Shown: positions 8,480 to 49,760, counted from the first letter of the stretch. The stretch: DNA of 64,000 bases from Escherichia coli (GCF_024223415.1 NZ_CP100500.1), one strand, 5' to 3'. The notes: generated by a model not told the origin, from the sequence alone. Made by a program: numbers and translations.

Positions 8480-8526
8480 TAAATCAGCCGGGTGGCAACT
8501 CTGCCATCCGGCATTTTCCCGCAAAT

Positions 8527-36311: not shown

Positions 36312-36691
36312 AGTTACCTCTAACGGTGAAATTCACCGCCACCACTGAGTTGCAAATCTCATATGGGTGGCGAACTGACGAGGTTTGCAATACCGGCGTT
36401 AGAGGAAACCGGCGCGCCGAAGCGCCCCCGCCAGCCCGCCATAATGCGAACGTGGCAAAGCTTGCGACAATAAAAAAGACGCTGGCGCGTCTGGTGTCGC
36501 CCCTAACAATTCCGGGTTGCAAATCCCGATCTCCATTTGGGAGATTCGGTGAGCATAAACCGGAAGGGGGCGATGAGTCAATATCGGGGTAGCAGGGCGA
36601 CTGGGTGCTAACCAGAACAATACAGGTAGCTCCGGGCATATTCCCCTTTGCAAAAACACCCGGCGTTTAACCGGGCGTCTGTGAAGCAGGA

Positions 36692-43660: not shown

Positions 43661-44386
43661 ATGCTGGTGAATGATAAGGGGGTGCAGATGCTGACAGCAA
43701 TCAACAACGAAAAAATTGTCATCGCAAGGGACGCGCAGAAACCGGGAATTTTCGCCTGCCCGGAATGTGGTGAAGTTGTCACCCTGCGGAAAGGTTCGGT
43801 GAAAGTTCACCATTTCGCCCATCGCAGCACCACATCCTGCGGTTACGGGAAAGGCGAATCTGAGTTGCACATGGATTTGAAAATGCAGGTCTATGACGCG
43901 TTGAACGCGCATCGTGAGGTGGAATATGTTGCGATGGAGGTCGCAGTCGGTGATGTTCGTCCCGATGTGCTGGCGATTATTCGGGGTCAGAAGGTTGCTT
44001 TTGAGATTCAGGTTAGTTCGCTGAGTATTGAAGACCTCTATCGCCGCACGGTTGCGTACGCAGCTCAGGACATTGCGATGATCTGGATCCTGCACTGGCC
44101 TGAAGGTACTGCACTGGACCGGCTTTATCACCCTGCATCATGGGAGCGATGGTTACATACTTGCGGAATGGCAACTCTGTACTTCTGGGCGGGCGATGGC
44201 TGGGTCAGGCCAGTGCGTCTGGGAAACCGACAACATGGATTACAAAGAGCACCTCGTGCCCATCTGGTTGATGATTTCGAACCAAAGCGAACAGGCGGGT
44301 GGATTAAAGGTGATTTTCTGATACCTGCTCGCTTTATCTGGAATCGTGTGCGACGGCAAAAACGTAGAGGTCAGAGCTATGCGTAA
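43661..44386 (+). CDS. CoiA-like / PD-(D/E)xK-type nuclease family protein
   Basis: 241 aa; CPECG zinc ribbon, HHFAH, and DVRPDVLAI...AFEIQVSS resembling competence protein CoiA-like nucleases. Confidence 0.5.
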   Translation: MLVNDKGVQMLTAINNEKIVIARDAQKPGIFACPECGEVVTLRKGSVKVHHFAHRSTTSCGYGKGESELHMDLKMQVYDALNAHREVEYVAMEVAVGDVRPDVLAIIRGQKVAFEIQVSSLSIEDLYRRTVAYAAQDIAMIWILHWPEGTALDRLYHPASWERWLHTCGMATLYFWAGDGWVRPVRLGNRQHGLQRAPRAHLVDDFEPKRTGGWIKGDFLIPARFIWNRVRRQKRRGQSYA

Positions 44387-44813
44387 TATTCAACAGGTTT
44401 TAGAGCGCTGGGGTGGCTGGGCTGCCAATAGCAACACCACAGTGAGCTGGGCTCCAATAGCGGCGGGATTTAAAGGGCTGGTAGTCAGCAGCCTGCCTGG
44501 CAGGCTGAGTTGCTGCGACGACGATGGCCTGATTATCGATGCTTGCGTCTGTCGGCTGCAGCAGGTCCGTAAGCCTGAGGAACTGGACGTCATTATGCTG
44601 TACTACGTCTACGGGTTAAGCAAACGTGAGATAGGACGGCGGCGTCGATGTTCTGAAGGATTTATCCGCCAGCAGTTGCAGGTAGCTGAGGGATTCATTG
44701 AGGGGTGTCTCTGCATGCTGGGTGTGAGCCTTCAGATGGATCCTGAGGTCGAAATTCAAAGGGATGAAAAAAGTATTAGTGCGCTACGCAAAAACTGCGC
44801 TACGCTGGTATGA
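44379..44813 (+). CDS. late-gene antiterminator Q (phage 21/82-type)
   Basis: ORF 44346..44813; probable start MRNIQQVLERWGGWAANSN...; position directly upstream of the lysis cassette. Confidence 0.7.
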   Translation: MRNIQQVLERWGGWAANSNTTVSWAPIAAGFKGLVVSSLPGRLSCCDDDGLIIDACVCRLQQVRKPEELDVIMLYYVYGLSKREIGRRRRCSEGFIRQQLQVAEGFIEGCLCMLGVSLQMDPEVEIQRDEKSISALRKNCATLV

Positions 44814-44940
44814 GTTGAATTTCTGACCTCAACGAAGAGCTCCAAATTATTGGGGGTTTTTTGTACGCACAACAGGTAATAGTATTGAACCCGCAGACCT
44901 CGCGGAACTGGTGAAAGGTGCCGCGCAGTGCTCTTATCGT

Positions 44941-45070
44941 TGTGGTGAAGCTCAATGGCGAGCTAGCAGATAGGCGACAGTGAAAATACTAGTCATGTAT
45001 CTGACCGCCGCGCGTACTGCAATCGGCAGCGCACCGATGGAAGCCGGTTCGATTCCGGCCGCCACAACCC
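44941..45070 (+). other. tRNA-like element (canonical 3' half; 5' acceptor/D-arm match separated by ~58-nt insert) - probable degenerate phage tRNA or tRNA 3' fragment
   Basis: T-arm GCCGG-TTCGATT-CCGGC, anticodon-arm-like ATCGG-CAGCGCA-CCGAT, acceptor 3' strand CGCCACA complementary to TGTGGTG at 44941; does not fold as a canonical 76-nt tRNA. Confidence 0.3.
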
Positions 45071-45187
45071 AAACTGAGCCGTAGCCACTGGCTGTCCTGA
45101 ACTCCTCAGTGATAGTTACGCTGCGGCCTTCTTTTTCCCCTTCCTAATACAAGAACTACGCAATCCGTTACTGGCGGAGGCGTTGCT

Positions 45188-45403
45188 ATGAAATCAATGG
45201 ACAAAATCTCAACTGGCATTGCCTACGGAACATCCGCTGGTAGTGCGGGATACTGGTTTTTACAGTGGTTGGATCAGGTCAGTCCGTCACAGTGGGCTGC
45301 TATTGGTGTGCTGGGGAGTCTGGCACTGGGCTTTCTGACTTATCTGACGAATCTGTACTTCAAGATAAAAGAGGACCGTCGCAAGGCGGCGCGGGGAGAG
45401 TAA
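45188..45403 (+). CDS. holin (phage 21 S / EssD-like, class II)
   Basis: 71 aa; [45 protein letters not shown]... matches remembered DLP12 EssD/S21. Confidence 0.9.
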
Positions 45404-45407
45404 TTCA

Positions 45408-46343
45408 ATGGAACATAATAATGAAAAATCCAGAGAGCACTCTGGAAACAGCAAACATTATTCCATTGCTCATTCATTCGGCGGCTTTCGTGATGTAGTC
45501 GGACAGGGTGCTGAGAGAGAACAGGAGAGTAATACAATGACTCAAAACCATGAACTGGTTGTTAAAGGAACCCGAAATTTTGAGAATAAAATTGCGGTGA
45601 TTTTAACCCTGCGTGACAAAAAGCGTTTTGCCTGTGAGATATTTGACTTACACATCAACCTTGAACGACAGGAAGGCGCCACTCTGGAGTTTTATGAGTC
45701 AGAGGCAATAAAACGGGCAAAGACATTGTTCCGGGATGTTGCTGCAGGGTTATGTGAAGGGGACGAGCTGTCGCCGGAAAAGCGCCCCATAATTTTACAG
45801 GCGCACAATGTGTGGATAACCTACAAAGGAAAGCTACCGGGAAGAATTACTGGTTCTCTGAAGATGCCGCCGTCAACACTGCGGTCAGAAAAAGAGGCGT
45901 CTTGTCTGCAGTCTGAGTACTCCATTACGGTTAAAAGTGCCGGAGAGGAAGGAAATAAACGTTATTTTATTGCGTCTGCACCTGATAAAGATCAGGAATG
46001 GGAGTGTAACCGGCCATCCTTTGTTGTATACGGAGATGGCGGGAAAATAACCATCTCAGAAAATGGGAAATTAACACCGCCATCGCACCAGCATAGTGAG
46101 GCGCTCATTGAATTTGCCATTGATTACCTGAAGAACAATAAAAAGCAGGGGCTGATGAAGCGCATTGGTCGTTGCATGGGATATCTGCAGGTAGCAGCTG
46201 AGATTGAAATGATGGCCAGTGGTGCTGACAATGATGCAGTTGTGCTGGAGGCTCTTCTGCGTGATTTTGATAATACGCCCTTTAAGAAAGCACCTGTTGA
46301 CTGGATGCAGCCGGGGATGACTTATCTGAAAGGGCGTATATAA
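45408..46343 (+). CDS. hypothetical protein inserted between holin and endolysin (moron A; alternative start 45537)
   Basis: 311-aa ORF with RBS, starting 4 nt after holin stop; no recognisable motif; N-terminal 43 aa low complexity, so Met44 (MTQNHELVV..., RBS GGAGAG) may be the real start. Confidence 0.5.
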   Translation: MEHNNEKSREHSGNSKHYSIAHSFGGFRDVVGQGAEREQESNTMTQNHELVVKGTRNFENKIAVILTLRDKKRFACEIFDLHINLERQEGATLEFYESEAIKRAKTLFRDVAAGLCEGDELSPEKRPIILQAHNVWITYKGKLPGRITGSLKMPPSTLRSEKEASCLQSEYSITVKSAGEEGNKRYFIASAPDKDQEWECNRPSFVVYGDGGKITISENGKLTPPSHQHSEALIEFAIDYLKNNKKQGLMKRIGRCMGYLQVAAEIEMMASGADNDAVVLEALLRDFDNTPFKKAPVDWMQPGMTYLKGRI

Positions 46344-46352
46344 GGTGGCTCG

Positions 46353-46667
46353 TTATCTGTTGCTGGATAATCGACTGAAGATGCGTTCTTTTTGTGTTTT
46401 TGCGTAATGATTGTCCCACTCACAATCAAGGTAGCTTAATTCTTCATTCAACCAGTTATTTATATTGGTCTTAATACGCATAAGCATGGGCTGTGTTAAT
46501 GCTCTGGCGATAATGCCGAGAGTCACAGGTGTGAGATGTCCATACGGCTCAGCCTGAATGGATTTTACTGCATCGTGTTCTTGTGGGAGGAGTAAGAGGC
46601 ACTCTGATTTTACCCGCTCATTTATGGCTTGCAGGCATAAATCATAATTATGTTGATCGTTATGCAT
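46353..46667 (-). CDS. hypothetical protein (moron B, 104 aa), convergent with moron A
   Basis: ORF only; lies inside the lysis cassette on the opposite strand. Confidence 0.45.
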   Translation of the reverse strand: MHNDQHNYDLCLQAINERVKSECLLLLPQEHDAVKSIQAEPYGHLTPVTLGIIARALTQPMLMRIKTNINNWLNEELSYLDCEWDNHYAKTQKERIFSRLSSNR

Positions 46668-46795
46668 GGTTAATCCTCTACTGAAATTGTCAGATATATT
46701 TCAGCCATCAGGAAAAACGCCAGTGTCCTACCGCTGGCGGGCTGAAGATTTAACATATCCAGGGATTCGGAACCGATAAATCCTGATAAATATCC

Positions 46796-47329
46796 ATGAA
46801 CACCAAAATCAAATATGGCCTGTCGGCTGCCGTTCTGGCACTGATTGCCGTCGGTGCGCCTGCGCCTGATATTCTCGACCAGTTTCTGGATGAAAAAGAA
46901 GGTAACCACACAACGGCATACCGCGATGGTTCCGGTATATGGACCATCTGTCGTGGTGCCACAATGGTGGATGGTAAGCCCGTCATACCGGGAATGAAGC
47001 TGTCGAAGGAAAAATGCGTTCAGGTTAATGCCATTGAGCGTGATAGGGCGCTGGCATGGGTGGAGCGCAATATTAAAGTACCTCTGACCGAAGCACAGAA
47101 AGCGGGTATTGCGTCATTCTGTCCCTATAACATTGGCCCCGGTAAGTGTTTCCCGTCGACGTTTTATAAGCGGCTTAATGCCGGTGATCGTAAAGGTGCC
47201 TGTGAGTCGATTCGCTGGTGGATTAAGGACGGTGGGCGTGATTGCCGCACACGTTCAAATAACTGCTACGGACAGGTTATTCGTCGTGACCAGGAAGCAG
47301 CACTTGTGTGCTGGGATATCGACAGATGA
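46796..47329 (+). CDS. SAR endolysin (phage 21 R-type lysozyme)
   Basis: 177 aa; N-terminal signal-anchor-release helix (GLSAAVLALIAVGAPA); lysozyme core (TICRGAT...). Confidence 0.85.
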   Translation: MNTKIKYGLSAAVLALIAVGAPAPDILDQFLDEKEGNHTTAYRDGSGIWTICRGATMVDGKPVIPGMKLSKEKCVQVNAIERDRALAWVERNIKVPLTEAQKAGIASFCPYNIGPGKCFPSTFYKRLNAGDRKGACESIRWWIKDGGRDCRTRSNNCYGQVIRRDQEAALVCWDIDR

Positions 47330-47421
47330 GCAGAATATTTTGCTGAAAAATGACGTTGGCCAACGCGGACGGATAACACGATATTCGACATAAATGAATT
47401 TAAATAGTGAATAAAAGCAGA

Positions 47422-47458
47422 AACCCCGATTGTTGGTCGCAATCGGGGTTTTGTGTTT
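47422..47458 (+). terminator. rho-independent terminator inside the R-Rz insert
   Basis: 11-bp stem aaccccgattg/caatcggggtt followed by TTTTGTGTTTCT. Confidence 0.7.
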
Positions 47459-47644
47459 CTGGCAGTAAGTTATGGGAGGCTGCCTTGATTAATTTTAGCG
47501 GAGGAGACTGGATTGTGGAAGCTCTGAAATTGCTCGAAAGAAGTCCGGTTCTGAGAAGAATGTTTTATATAGCTCTTATAGTTATCGGAGCATTCGCCGT
47601 TGCGAAATCACTTCCGGGAATAGCTGAAATCATAAAGGCGCTGA

Positions 47645-47818
47645 ATGCATAAAGAATACCTGGCTGAGGCTGACAAACAGGTCTCTGAATTGAAAGCTCC
47701 GGTAACCGATGACATCAGCGGAGCGGTGGCTTTTGCCATTAAGTGGGTGGCAGTCGGCGTTGCTATATCACCGGTACTGTATGGGCTGGCAAAGCTGGTT
47801 ATTGCGTTGAAATCATAA
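47645..47818 (+). CDS. small hydrophobic peptide (57 aa) carried on the R-Rz insert
   Basis: ATG 47645 to TAA 47818, MHKEYLAEADKQVSELKAPVTDDISGAVAFAIKWVAVGVAISPVLYGLAKLVIALKS, one TM helix; not in the ORF track. A second possible peptide MFYIALIVIGAFAVAKSLPGIAEIIKALNA (47560..47652) directly precedes it. Confidence 0.35.
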   Translation: MHKEYLAEADKQVSELKAPVTDDISGAVAFAIKWVAVGVAISPVLYGLAKLVIALKS

Positions 47819-47881
47819 CTGTTACGGCCAGGTTATTCGTCGTGACCAGGAAAGTGCATTAGCCTGTTGGGGGATAGATCA

Positions 47882-48349
47882 GTGAGCAGAGTCGCCGCGA
47901 TTATTTATGCTCTGGTTATCTGCATCATCGTCTGCCTGTCGTGGGCGGTCAATCATTACCGTGATAACGCCATCGCCTACAAAGAACAGCGTGATAAAAA
48001 AGTCAGTGAGCTGAAGCAGGCGACCGCCACCATTACTGACATGCAGCAACGCCAGCGTGCTGCTGATGTACTCGATGCTAAATACACGAAGGAGTTGGCT
48101 GATGCGAAAGCTGAAAATGATGCTCTTCGGCGCAAGCTTGATAATGGTGGTCGGGTGCTCGTCAAAGGAAAATGCTCTGTGCCATCCTCAGCCGAAACCT
48201 CCAGCGCCTCCGGCATGGGCAATGATGCCACCGTCGAACTCTCTCCAGTTGCTGGACGAAACGTTCTCGGTATCCGGGACGGAATCATCAGAGACCAGAC
48301 AGCACTGAGAACGCTTCAGGAATATATCAGGACGCAATGCCTTCGATGA
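47882..48349 (+). CDS. i-spanin Rz
   Basis: ORF 47867..48349; lambda Rz-like sequence ([33 protein letters not shown]...) beginning at a GTG aligned with lambda Rz Met1. Confidence 0.85.
48102..48308 (+). CDS. o-spanin Rz1 (lipoprotein, nested in +1 frame of Rz)
   Basis: ORF 48057..48308; start [21 protein letters not shown] with lipobox VVGC; proline-rich mature part ([16 protein letters not shown]). Confidence 0.8.
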
Positions 48350-48550: not shown

Positions 48551-48776
48551 CCATTACAAAAGCCACTCCCTACAGAGTGGCTTTGATAATGGCTTATACC
48601 CTACACGGGATAACTTAACTGATATCCCTTTTAACGGATAAAGGTATTCAAGCCTGACACATCATGCGCTGTATCGTCGCCGTATTCCCGTATTAACAGA
48701 GACCGTAGCCCGACGGGGAACTCCTTCTGCGAGAGTGTGCGGGAATAATCAAAAACGATGCACACCGGGTTTTTAC
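48551..48776. repeat. ~225-bp direct repeat, left copy (DR-L)
   Basis: Near-identical to 50338..50562 (a few mismatches); weaker similarity continues ~70 bp further in both copies. Confidence 0.85.
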
Positions 48777-48899
48777 CGCGCTAATGATTCGCGGGTTTGT
48801 CCCTCATGCTCGCCAGTCCTGTGCGAGGGTGGAAGAAACAGGGCATGTATTCAGGAGCGTGCGACCGTGGTCGCACGGTATCTTTGTCAGGAGGTTTTG

Positions 48900-49760
48900 A
48901 TGAAAGAGTTGCAAAAAATTAATTCAATAATGGAAAGGTTAAGTGCTCTTGAGCGTAAGCTGGACGATTGTGGAAAGCTGTGTGTTGAAAAGCAAAATGA
49001 GCTTTACCGGGAATTTTTTACAATCGTAAGTGAGCTGATGCCAATTGTTAATAACTGCCTGATGACATCCAGATTTTTTAATGTCGATGCTACTACATCC
49101 AGAAAATTTTCTGTGAAAATTCAAGAAAGAGTTTCTGGTAGTGTGACAAGAGAGATGGCTGAACAGTTGGTGGCAATGAGCAATAAAACAAAAAGAAAAA
49201 AGGCATTGCTTGTAACAGCAAATCAGCTTTCAGGGCGCGTTGACTTTCAGGTCAGACAGGGTGGGCGTGTACTGGTAAATGATGCGTTCGTTGGACGTAG
49301 CTTTAGTCCTTACTCGATAAAATATGATGTTGATGCAGATGATCAGGATATCAGCATTTCCTGGAAATCTGAGACAGCAGGGATTGTATTAACAGCAGAG
49401 TTGTTGAGTGATGATAAAAATGATGTCCAGCATCATTTGGACGAAAAGAATCATATTTCTGAAATTTGTATGAAGCCACGCAGCGGAATGACTTTATTGT
49501 CACGCACTCTTGCTGCTGGCTTTTCTGCACCGGAAAAACGTGTGCTTCTGGTAGTGCCTGAAGATGCAGATATTCGACCACTGAATGGCTGTGATGTTAT
49601 TAGTGCAAAAACATTGCATACCCGCGTCATTCCTGTACCGGATGTGGTCATTATTGATGATGTTGAGAAATGCAAGTCTGTTTCCTCAACTGCCACAATC
49701 AAGCGAATTTTACGTTGTAGCACGTCGGCTGTTGTATTCCGGAAGCAGTTACATAACTAA
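48900..49760 (+). CDS. hypothetical protein (286 aa), first gene of AT-rich cassette
   Basis: ORF 48735..49760; probable start Met56 MKELQKINSIMERLSALERKLDD... with AGGAGG RBS; coiled-coil-like N-terminus; AT-rich codon usage unlike surrounding phage genes. Confidence 0.55.
   Translation: MKELQKINSIMERLSALERKLDDCGKLCVEKQNELYREFFTIVSELMPIVNNCLMTSRFFNVDATTSRKFSVKIQERVSGSVTREMAEQLVAMSNKTKRKKALLVTANQLSGRVDFQVRQGGRVLVNDAFVGRSFSPYSIKYDVDADDQDISISWKSETAGIVLTAELLSDDKNDVQHHLDEKNHISEICMKPRSGMTLLSRTLAAGFSAPEKRVLLVVPEDADIRPLNGCDVISAKTLHTRVIPVPDVVIIDDVEKCKSVSSTATIKRILRCSTSAVVFRKQLHN

Follow-up and report, generated by a model that had tools for sequence, protein, structure and literature searches.

A long YdfR-family gene and a convergent small gene form a conserved accessory pair in the late regions of lambdoid prophages

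Introduction

In the Qin prophage of Escherichia coli K-12, the lysis genes lie in the order essQ-ydfR-rrrQ-rzpQ, with ydfR beginning 4 nucleotides (nt) past the essQ stop codon and overlapping rrrQ. YdfR is a member of DUF1327, which is already known as a common, uncharacterised phage protein family. K-12 YdfR was recovered in a two-hybrid screen described in a 2026 report (PMC13232886). Its residues 1-72 suffice for a two-hybrid signal with residues 1-597 of RNase E (Rne), and both Rne 1-598 and RNA (nucleic acid resistant to DNase) co-purify with full-length YdfR (PMC13232886). This reported binding to the N-terminal catalytic half of RNase E is the only functional lead for the genes considered here. 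We analysed a 64,000-nt stretch of E. coli DNA (GCF_024223415.1, NZ_CP100500.1), hereafter the window, in which a lambdoid prophage retains its complete set of genes for morphogenesis. Between the holin gene (S) and the endolysin gene (R) of this prophage lie a long relative of ydfR and, convergent with it, an open reading frame (ORF) of 104 codons, ORF104.

A first-pass annotation of the window had read these two ORFs as an unusual insertion into the lysis cassette. It correctly placed both ORFs, the 4 nt that separate the larger one from the holin stop, the convergence and the span of about 1.4 kb, and its interpretation is partly supported by the results below. We find that the large gene and ORF104 make up an uncharacterised accessory pair that is conserved in the late regions of lambdoid prophages. 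What is new is a long YdfR sub-type with a conserved C-terminal domain (CTD), a dedicated convergent partner kept between E. coli and Salmonella, and a deletion origin for at least some cassettes that lack ORF104.

Results

The large gene is a long member of the YdfR family

The proteins encoded by the large gene and by ORF104 each match PHROG families. In the large protein, Pfam DUF1327 (PF07041; i-Evalue 8.3e-28) matches residues 44-143 of the 311-residue ORF that opens just after the holin gene, which are residues 1-100 of a protein of 268 amino acids (aa) starting at an internal methionine. The N-terminal domain of this shorter product is 55% identical to residues 1-74 of K-12 YdfR. All 213 homologues begin at the methionine that corresponds to residue 44 of the ORF (window position 45537; MTQN.ELVVKG...), and they do so regardless of whether they are 103, 176, 268, 287, 296 or 325-333 aa long. 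The start assigned in strain EC332 by the Prokaryotic Genome Annotation Pipeline (PGAP) is the same methionine; the EC332 match to the queried region is 96.7% identical. These comparisons suggest that the large gene probably starts at 45537 and encodes 268 aa, such that the reading frame of the first-pass annotation stands while its 311-aa start is probably not the true one.

The upstream ATG at 45408 is created by 129 in-frame nt, exactly 43 codons, that part the conserved start from the holin stop. This insertion is flanked at 45395-45410 and 45524-45539 by two direct copies of a 16-nt sequence containing the holin stop, the ribosome-binding site and the ATG, GGAGAGTAAT(T/A)CAATG, and the ribosome-binding site and its spacing are identical at the two ATGs. 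Of 5,426 complete E. coli genomes, just two, those of EC332 and B771, have the 129-nt spacer, which was also detected in a single IMG/VR contig (L023). Its translation contains the stretch IAHSFGGF, which recurs inside a 385-aa YdfR-family protein of another locus (L067), so the insertion looks like the scar of recombination between ydfR alleles. The 311-aa ORF as the true product is disfavoured by the homologue starts and has no comparative support; a 311-aa isoform is possible because the ribosome-binding site and the ATG are duplicated. In E. coli B771 (L007, 3134-3716), this holin and scar precede a ydfR of only 114 aa, whose 3' end is overlapped by an unrelated convergent ORF of 90 aa, so that the position can hold convergent small genes of two kinds.

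The domain architecture of the large protein was examined with an AlphaFold2 (AF2) model built from a 42-sequence alignment. Residues 1-73 form three strands and a long helix, with mean predicted local distance difference test (pLDDT) values of about 71-90 over blocks of 10 residues. Residues 74-154 have pLDDT below 50; in the alignment this linker is hypervariable and carries lineage-specific coiled-coil inserts. The CTD (from about residue 155 to 268, about 115 aa) comprises three short strands and four helices, with block pLDDT mostly about 80-94 and below 70 at the last residues. The CTD has no known relatives. It contains the invariant motifs H..., GR.M..LQ.AAEIE and PP.K...W..PG..YL, and its ratio of nonsynonymous to synonymous substitution rates (dN/dS) among six alleles is 0.18-0.43. 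A Kyte-Doolittle scan with 19-residue windows found no hydrophobic segment of transmembrane strength in either the large protein or the ORF104 protein; the maximal scores of the two were 0.87 and 1.16, compared to 1.59 for the holin and 1.87 (at residue 9) for the signal-anchor-release (SAR) segment of the endolysin. The large protein is thus predicted to be soluble and cytoplasmic. Foldseek against AFDB50 returned matches only within the protein's own family, profile searches against PDB sequences gave nothing better than E = 0.08, and no structural or RNA-family match pointing to a function was found.

The large gene is itself a mosaic. ORF104 is nucleotide-identical in the window, EC332, 55989 and SCU-116, and matches in this block begin at query position 511, near the domain boundary. 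In related IMG/VR contigs the N-domain is 50-68% and the holin 76-94% identical at the protein level. Since the block of CTD and ORF104 is identical (at the nucleotide level for ORF104) while the N-domain and the holin diverge, a mosaic joint lies within the large gene.

ORF104 is a real gene linked to the CTD

ORF104 shows dN/dS of 0.24-0.37 in its own frame compared to about 0.5-2.1 in the shifted frames. Four alleles at 80-90% DNA identity do not vary in length, and the differences are concentrated at third codon positions. Both the large gene and ORF104 are therefore real genes under purifying selection and not chance ORFs. The AF2 model of the ORF104 protein is a soluble five-helix fold (pLDDT 88; predicted template modelling score 0.81), and a profile search recovered homologues in 41 protein clusters from E. 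coli and Salmonella enterica.

We examined 54 loci with an ORF104 homologue, 46 in IMG/VR contigs and eight elsewhere. In every one of them the homologue is convergent with and abuts a gene encoding the CTD, with the last codons 13-35 nt apart or the genes overlapping, and among these loci no ORF104 homologue occurs in any other context. Some of the partners are proteins of 213-217 aa with a coiled-coil N-terminus and the CTD but without DUF1327, indicating that the CTD is the invariant neighbour of ORF104. The pair extends to Salmonella prophages and to contig L019, at identities of 28-34% for the large protein (with E values in Salmonella of about 1e-24 to 8e-26) and 43-45% for the small one (with E values of about 7e-28 to 7e-34). 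At these loci the two genes lie between Q/HicAB and the holin gene, upstream of the latter and outside the S-R interval. In distant relatives a DUF4406 gene precedes and overlaps the homologue of the long ydfR (L021, 3139-3504; L019, 1089-1487) and may be a further conserved neighbour.

Cassettes such as those of E2863 and O55:H7 have no ORF104 but retain its last codons, directly followed by a junction with GATAA as microhomology. They derive from cassettes with ORF104 through the deletion of about 416 nt. In this lineage ORF104 was lost rather than newly inserted, contrary to the insertion that the first-pass annotation had supposed.

The family is a standard resident of Qin-type cassettes

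The distribution of the three segments was determined by blastn against the 5,426 complete E. coli genomes and by tblastn against 50,697 phage records. DNA of the DUF1327 N-domain is present in 4,334 genomes (about 80%) at 8,515 places, the position of which was checked in the loci read. CTD DNA occurs in 786 genomes (14.5%; 969 places) and ORF104 DNA in 94 (1.7%; 131 places). The N-domain was found in 100 of the phage records. ORF104 was found in four: two records of Stx2-converting phage 86, with a 100% identical protein, and two Stx2a phages of strain 12E129. The phage 86 module is identical to that of the window.

The order S-ydfR-R is found in sequenced phages as well as in K-12 Qin, and a DUF1327 gene between S and R is the ordinary layout of Qin-type cassettes. 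It follows that the large gene is a variant of the standard resident, not a novel insertion, and that the premise of the first-pass annotation, S normally followed directly by R, does not apply to cassettes of this type. Its alternative that the ORFs might be widespread cassette components with a known function holds for the first half: the family is widespread and conserved, its function is not known. It is confined to prophages of Enterobacterales. A CTD-profile scan of species-representative genomes returned a single locus, probably limited by its use of one peptide pattern; the taxonomic breadth given here comes from the other searches.

PGAP often labels long ydfR genes as pseudogenes ("YdfR family protein, incomplete, missing C-terminus") and gives the CTD no annotation (L003, 2378-3184; L016, 1951-2844; other RefSeq records). 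A pseudogene reading drawn from these labels was rejected on the ORFs themselves, which are intact at 268 codons in strain 55989 and 297 in ST131. The labels look like a systematic annotation artefact.

Expression signals

From its position and orientation, we infer that the large gene belongs to the late operon and shares the Q-dependent late promoter of the lysis genes. ORF104 is antisense to this operon. By position, late transcription from the Q region reads through S, the long ydfR, ORF104 in antisense, R and Rz. A terminator scan detected a terminator-like site at 44840-44855 but none between the two stop codons and none following ORF104; overall, the scan counted no more terminators than expected from shuffled sequence.

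A hairpin, CGCCAGTG-loop-CACTGGCG (CGCCAG(N10)CTGGCG; 46718-46739, minus strand), lies in the sense of ORF104 about 50 nt before its start codon and is followed by TTTTT. A conserved Shine-Dalgarno region lies 3' of the hairpin, before ORF104. The hairpin is found ahead of the ORF104 homologues of E. coli, Salmonella and L019, and 98.8% of the cells in its alignment are paired, with one mismatch. Four of the five changes are one-sided and all four give G.U pairs in the ORF104 sense, a suggestive bias that is not statistically significant. The E. coli alleles have a terminator-like U-run after the hairpin. A role as a terminator for antisense transcripts was considered and judged less likely: the Salmonella and L019 copies have no U-run and there is no co-directional gene upstream, which makes a leader element more likely than a terminator. 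The hairpin is probably part of the ORF104 leader.

Layout and neighbouring features

The segment of the window containing lepA-rnc-era is 100% identical to several strains, placing the window on the E. coli chromosome. Table 1 lists the features of the late region. The large ORF and ORF104 have 9 nt between their stop codons, and 1,392 nt separate the holin stop (TAA, 45401-45403) from the endolysin start. The G+C content is 41-47% in the segment of the long ydfR and ORF104 (41% in ORF104 itself) compared to 51-52% in S, R and Rz. The earlier description of the genes as accessory and uncharacterised is borne out. The N-terminus of the holin (MKSMDK...) offers Met1 and Met4 as possible dual starts; the EC332 holin is labelled "class II holin family protein" by PGAP, and the holin homologues carry PF04971. 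Endolysin R has a hydrophobic N-terminus and an E35-x8-D44-x5-T50 motif.

Table 1. Features of the prophage late region, in window coordinates.
Feature	Position	Strand	Basis or remark
Antiterminator Q	44346-44813	+	phrog_79 anti-termination protein Q-like, 2e-45
Class II (phage-21/S21-type) pinholin, 71 aa	45188-45403	+	PHROG phrog_9876 and phrog_20
129-nt in-frame insertion with bounding repeats	45395-45539	+	Alignment with six other cassettes
311-codon ORF	45408-46343	+	ATG 4 nt past holin stop
Long YdfR-family gene, 268 aa (probable start)	45537-46343	+	Pfam DUF1327, homologue starts
DUF1327 N-domain	45537-45755	+	
Variable disordered linker	45756-45998	+	
Conserved CTD	45999-46340	+	
ORF104, 104 codons	46353-46667	-	phrog_1853 (function unknown), dN/dS, AF2 model
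Hairpin and T-run upstream of ORF104	46713-46739	-	Conserved in ORF104 homologue loci
SAR-type endolysin R, 177 aa	46796-47329	+	phrog_7 endolysin; PF00959 in homologues
Extra sequence between R and Rz	47330-47866		~540 nt
Rz-like spanin, end of lysis cassette	47867-48349	+	phrog_13 Rz-like spanin, 1.6e-71

Several further observations were made in the region. The spacer between R and Rz contains a strong perfect hairpin (47420-47452) with a terminator score on both strands and two small ORFs, one of 81 aa without a PHROG match and one of 57 aa in phrog_1115 (function unknown); R and Rz overlap in EC332, and strain 55989 has small annotated ORFs between them. In the gap between Q and the holin gene (45012-45070, plus strand), there is a tRNA- or tmRNA-like 3' fragment (Rfam tmRNA, E = 1.8e-5, below the gathering score) for which ARAGORN calls no gene. 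Related cassettes have tRNA genes between Q and holin, and a tRNA or ssrA-type sequence may have left this fragment behind. Across 44700-47900, Rfam covariance models gave no match at the gathering score and sub-threshold matches only at permissive settings. Just upstream of Q, a 241-aa ORF (43661-44386, plus strand) without a match in PHROG carries a CxxC...H motif close to the N-terminus. Directly after Rz, a 341-aa ORF (48735-49760, plus strand) matches phrog_2571 (function unknown, 1e-163) and is a conserved late-region gene. At 36363-36545 on the minus strand, adjoining Rfam matches to C4 antisense RNA and isrK lie above the gathering score, a pairing which we take to mark a prophage immunity or antirepressor region.

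Discussion

We propose, tentatively and with somewhat less than even confidence, that the large gene product is a late-expressed accessory factor and that the small protein modulates its CTD. The proposal starts from the homology, architecture, linkage, selection and orientation observed above. The late-transcribed large gene would give a soluble cytoplasmic product whose DUF1327 domain, by homology to the K-12 YdfR segment, would target RNase E or RNA, and whose flexible hypervariable linker would tether this domain to the conserved CTD. ORF104 would be expressed independently, behind a conserved leader of its own, and its small helical product would modulate or antagonise the CTD or the mRNA encoding it. 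Given the convergent orientation and the lack of a detected terminator between the stops, late read-through from pR' would make mRNA of the large gene while interfering with ORF104 transcription, and the balance would move toward active large protein late in infection. The module would stand outside the core lysis machinery and most likely tune host RNA metabolism or another cytoplasmic process of the late phase. The proposal is supported by the prevalence of DUF1327 DNA, the identity of the N-domain to the YdfR segment, the two folded domains with their linker, the purifying selection and the predicted solubility. The convergent adjacency (54/54 loci) is moreover kept at 28% identity of the large and 45% of the small protein in Salmonella and L019, and ydfR has an ancestral place between S and R with tight coupling, as in K-12.

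Several observations weigh against this explanation. Most CTD genes have no ORF104, and ORF104 has been deleted in some lineages; any role of ORF104 must hence be dispensable. The alleles of the two genes reassort, with an 82% identical CTD beside a 48% identical ORF104 in L067 and a 59% identical CTD beside an 84% identical ORF104 in L013, so that their sequences give no clear sign of co-evolution. The promoter scan detected no convincing sigma-70 promoter for ORF104, with none over its threshold, and the fold searches of the proteins gave no functional analogue. Overproduced YdfR altered few transcripts in K-12 (PMC13232886). RNase E binding by the window allele, interaction of ORF104 with the CTD and the logic of the switch are all steps that we infer.

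A bolder form of the proposal, which we consider quite unlikely, is that the long YdfR and ORF104 form a late-phase switch on RNase E. DUF1327 would dock on the catalytic half of the enzyme, the CTD would deliver an activity or a cargo such as RNA, and ORF104 would be a dedicated antagonist silenced by Q-dependent read-through. In this manner, the decay of host or phage mRNA would be reprogrammed just before lysis.

The alternative that survives best, doubtful but credible, is that ORF104 is an independent moron expressed in the lysogen, for example for exclusion or host modulation, and that its adjacency to the long ydfR reflects common descent and a shared insertion hot-spot instead of a functional partnership. 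ORF104 is oriented against the late operon, as are bor or iss in related prophages, and it has a conserved leader of its own and a low G+C content. The reassortment of alleles and the loss of ORF104 in at least one lineage point the same way. Its promoter scan stays below threshold and no terminator follows the gene, and the linkage weighs against independence. The stops abut or overlap at all 54 loci, no ORF104 homologue is found elsewhere among them, and in Salmonella and L019 the adjacency is retained at 28-45% protein identity despite a different place relative to S and R.

It is unlikely that both proteins are regulators of lysis timing that modulate, for example, the pinholin or the SAR endolysin. 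The genes are embedded between S and R in E. coli, the K-12 ydfR is translationally coupled to both, and the large gene adjoins lysis genes always, even in distant relatives. Paradis-Bleau 2014, as cited in PMC13232886, is a genome-wide screen that listed ydfR among envelope-integrity mutants. Overproduction of the short K-12 YdfR had no effect on growth (PMC13232886), and the Salmonella pair lies outside the S-R interval. Both proteins are predicted to be soluble, without a transmembrane or signal segment. This contrasts with known antiholins and SAR regulators, which act in the membrane. Some cassettes, such as essD-rrrD of K-12 DLP12, have no ydfR at all, which also counts against a role in lysis timing.

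We regard as very unlikely a toxin-antitoxin, abortive-infection or other anti-phage defence system, although a two-gene module in a prophage accessory region with one small partner would fit such a system and the Salmonella pair lies beside HicAB and RelB/ParE modules. The first-pass annotation had named defence as a candidate role, but PADLOC returned no family for either protein up to E = 1, and Pfam and NCBIfam gave no toxin, antitoxin or defence domain in either, with DUF1327 as the only domain found. The genes are convergent rather than co-transcribed. The gene that would encode the toxin is intact without ORF104 in the loci read and about eight-fold commoner (786 compared to 94 genomes), which argues against an obligatory pair of toxin and antidote; of the earlier suggestion of a toxin/regulator pair, the pairing is retained. 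The large gene is moreover under late-promoter control and would not be expressed in the lysogen needing protection. Finally, it is scarcely credible that the genes are decaying, non-functional remnants, even though PGAP labels many long ydfR genes pseudogenes and the window copy carries a 5' recombination scar, as the labelled ORFs are intact, dN/dS is well below 1 for both genes, which largely refutes decay, and the same module is present in Stx2-converting phage 86.

The uncharacterised DUF1327/YdfR genes occur in lysis cassettes of prophages in E. coli genomes, about 80% of which have them; Stx phages and the O104:H4 outbreak lineage are among the carriers. A search of the literature on Stx2 phage 86, lysis-cassette genes and the ORF104 protein accession found nothing on these genes. 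The long form and its convergent partner provide a concrete and cheap experimental handle that can be combined with the report on YdfR and RNase E. If the RNase E link is true, it would represent a new way for temperate phages to manipulate host RNA decay; if it is false, the corrected annotation remains, given that PGAP marks intact long ydfR genes as pseudogenes.

Comparison with known systems

The lysis cassette of the window resembles the phage-21-type cassette (S21 pinholin, R21 SAR endolysin, Rz/Rz1). Its holin, endolysin and spanin belong to the same families and have the same order and late orientation, as seen in the PHROG assignments, the MKSM start and the E35-x8-D-x5-T motif. It differs in having two further genes in the S-R interval and some 540 nt of additional sequence before Rz.

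Phage modulators of RNase E include T4 Srd, phiKZ Dip and T7 gp0.7. The large protein would resemble them only if the reported binding of YdfR to RNase E holds, and to our knowledge it has no similarity to Srd, Dip or gp0.7 in sequence or fold.

ORF104 is comparable to lambda bor and iss in that it is small, low in G+C, oriented against late transcription and provided with its own upstream region. Unlike these genes, it encodes no lipoprotein signal or membrane segment, is invariably tied to one specific neighbour and has no definable pair of promoter and terminator.

The closest relative is YdfR of K-12 Qin (P76160; DUF1327, PF07041), with which the large protein shares a homologous N-terminal segment of 74 residues and the position between a class II holin and a lysozyme gene. 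K-12 YdfR is a single domain of 103 aa, whereas the window protein has 268 aa with a disordered linker of about 80 residues and a CTD of 115 aa. The K-12 ydfR overlaps R; the window gene instead has a convergent gene downstream and is separated from S by the 129-nt scar. In exceeding the single domain of about 100 aa that characterises K-12 YdfR, the window protein represents a long sub-type of the family.

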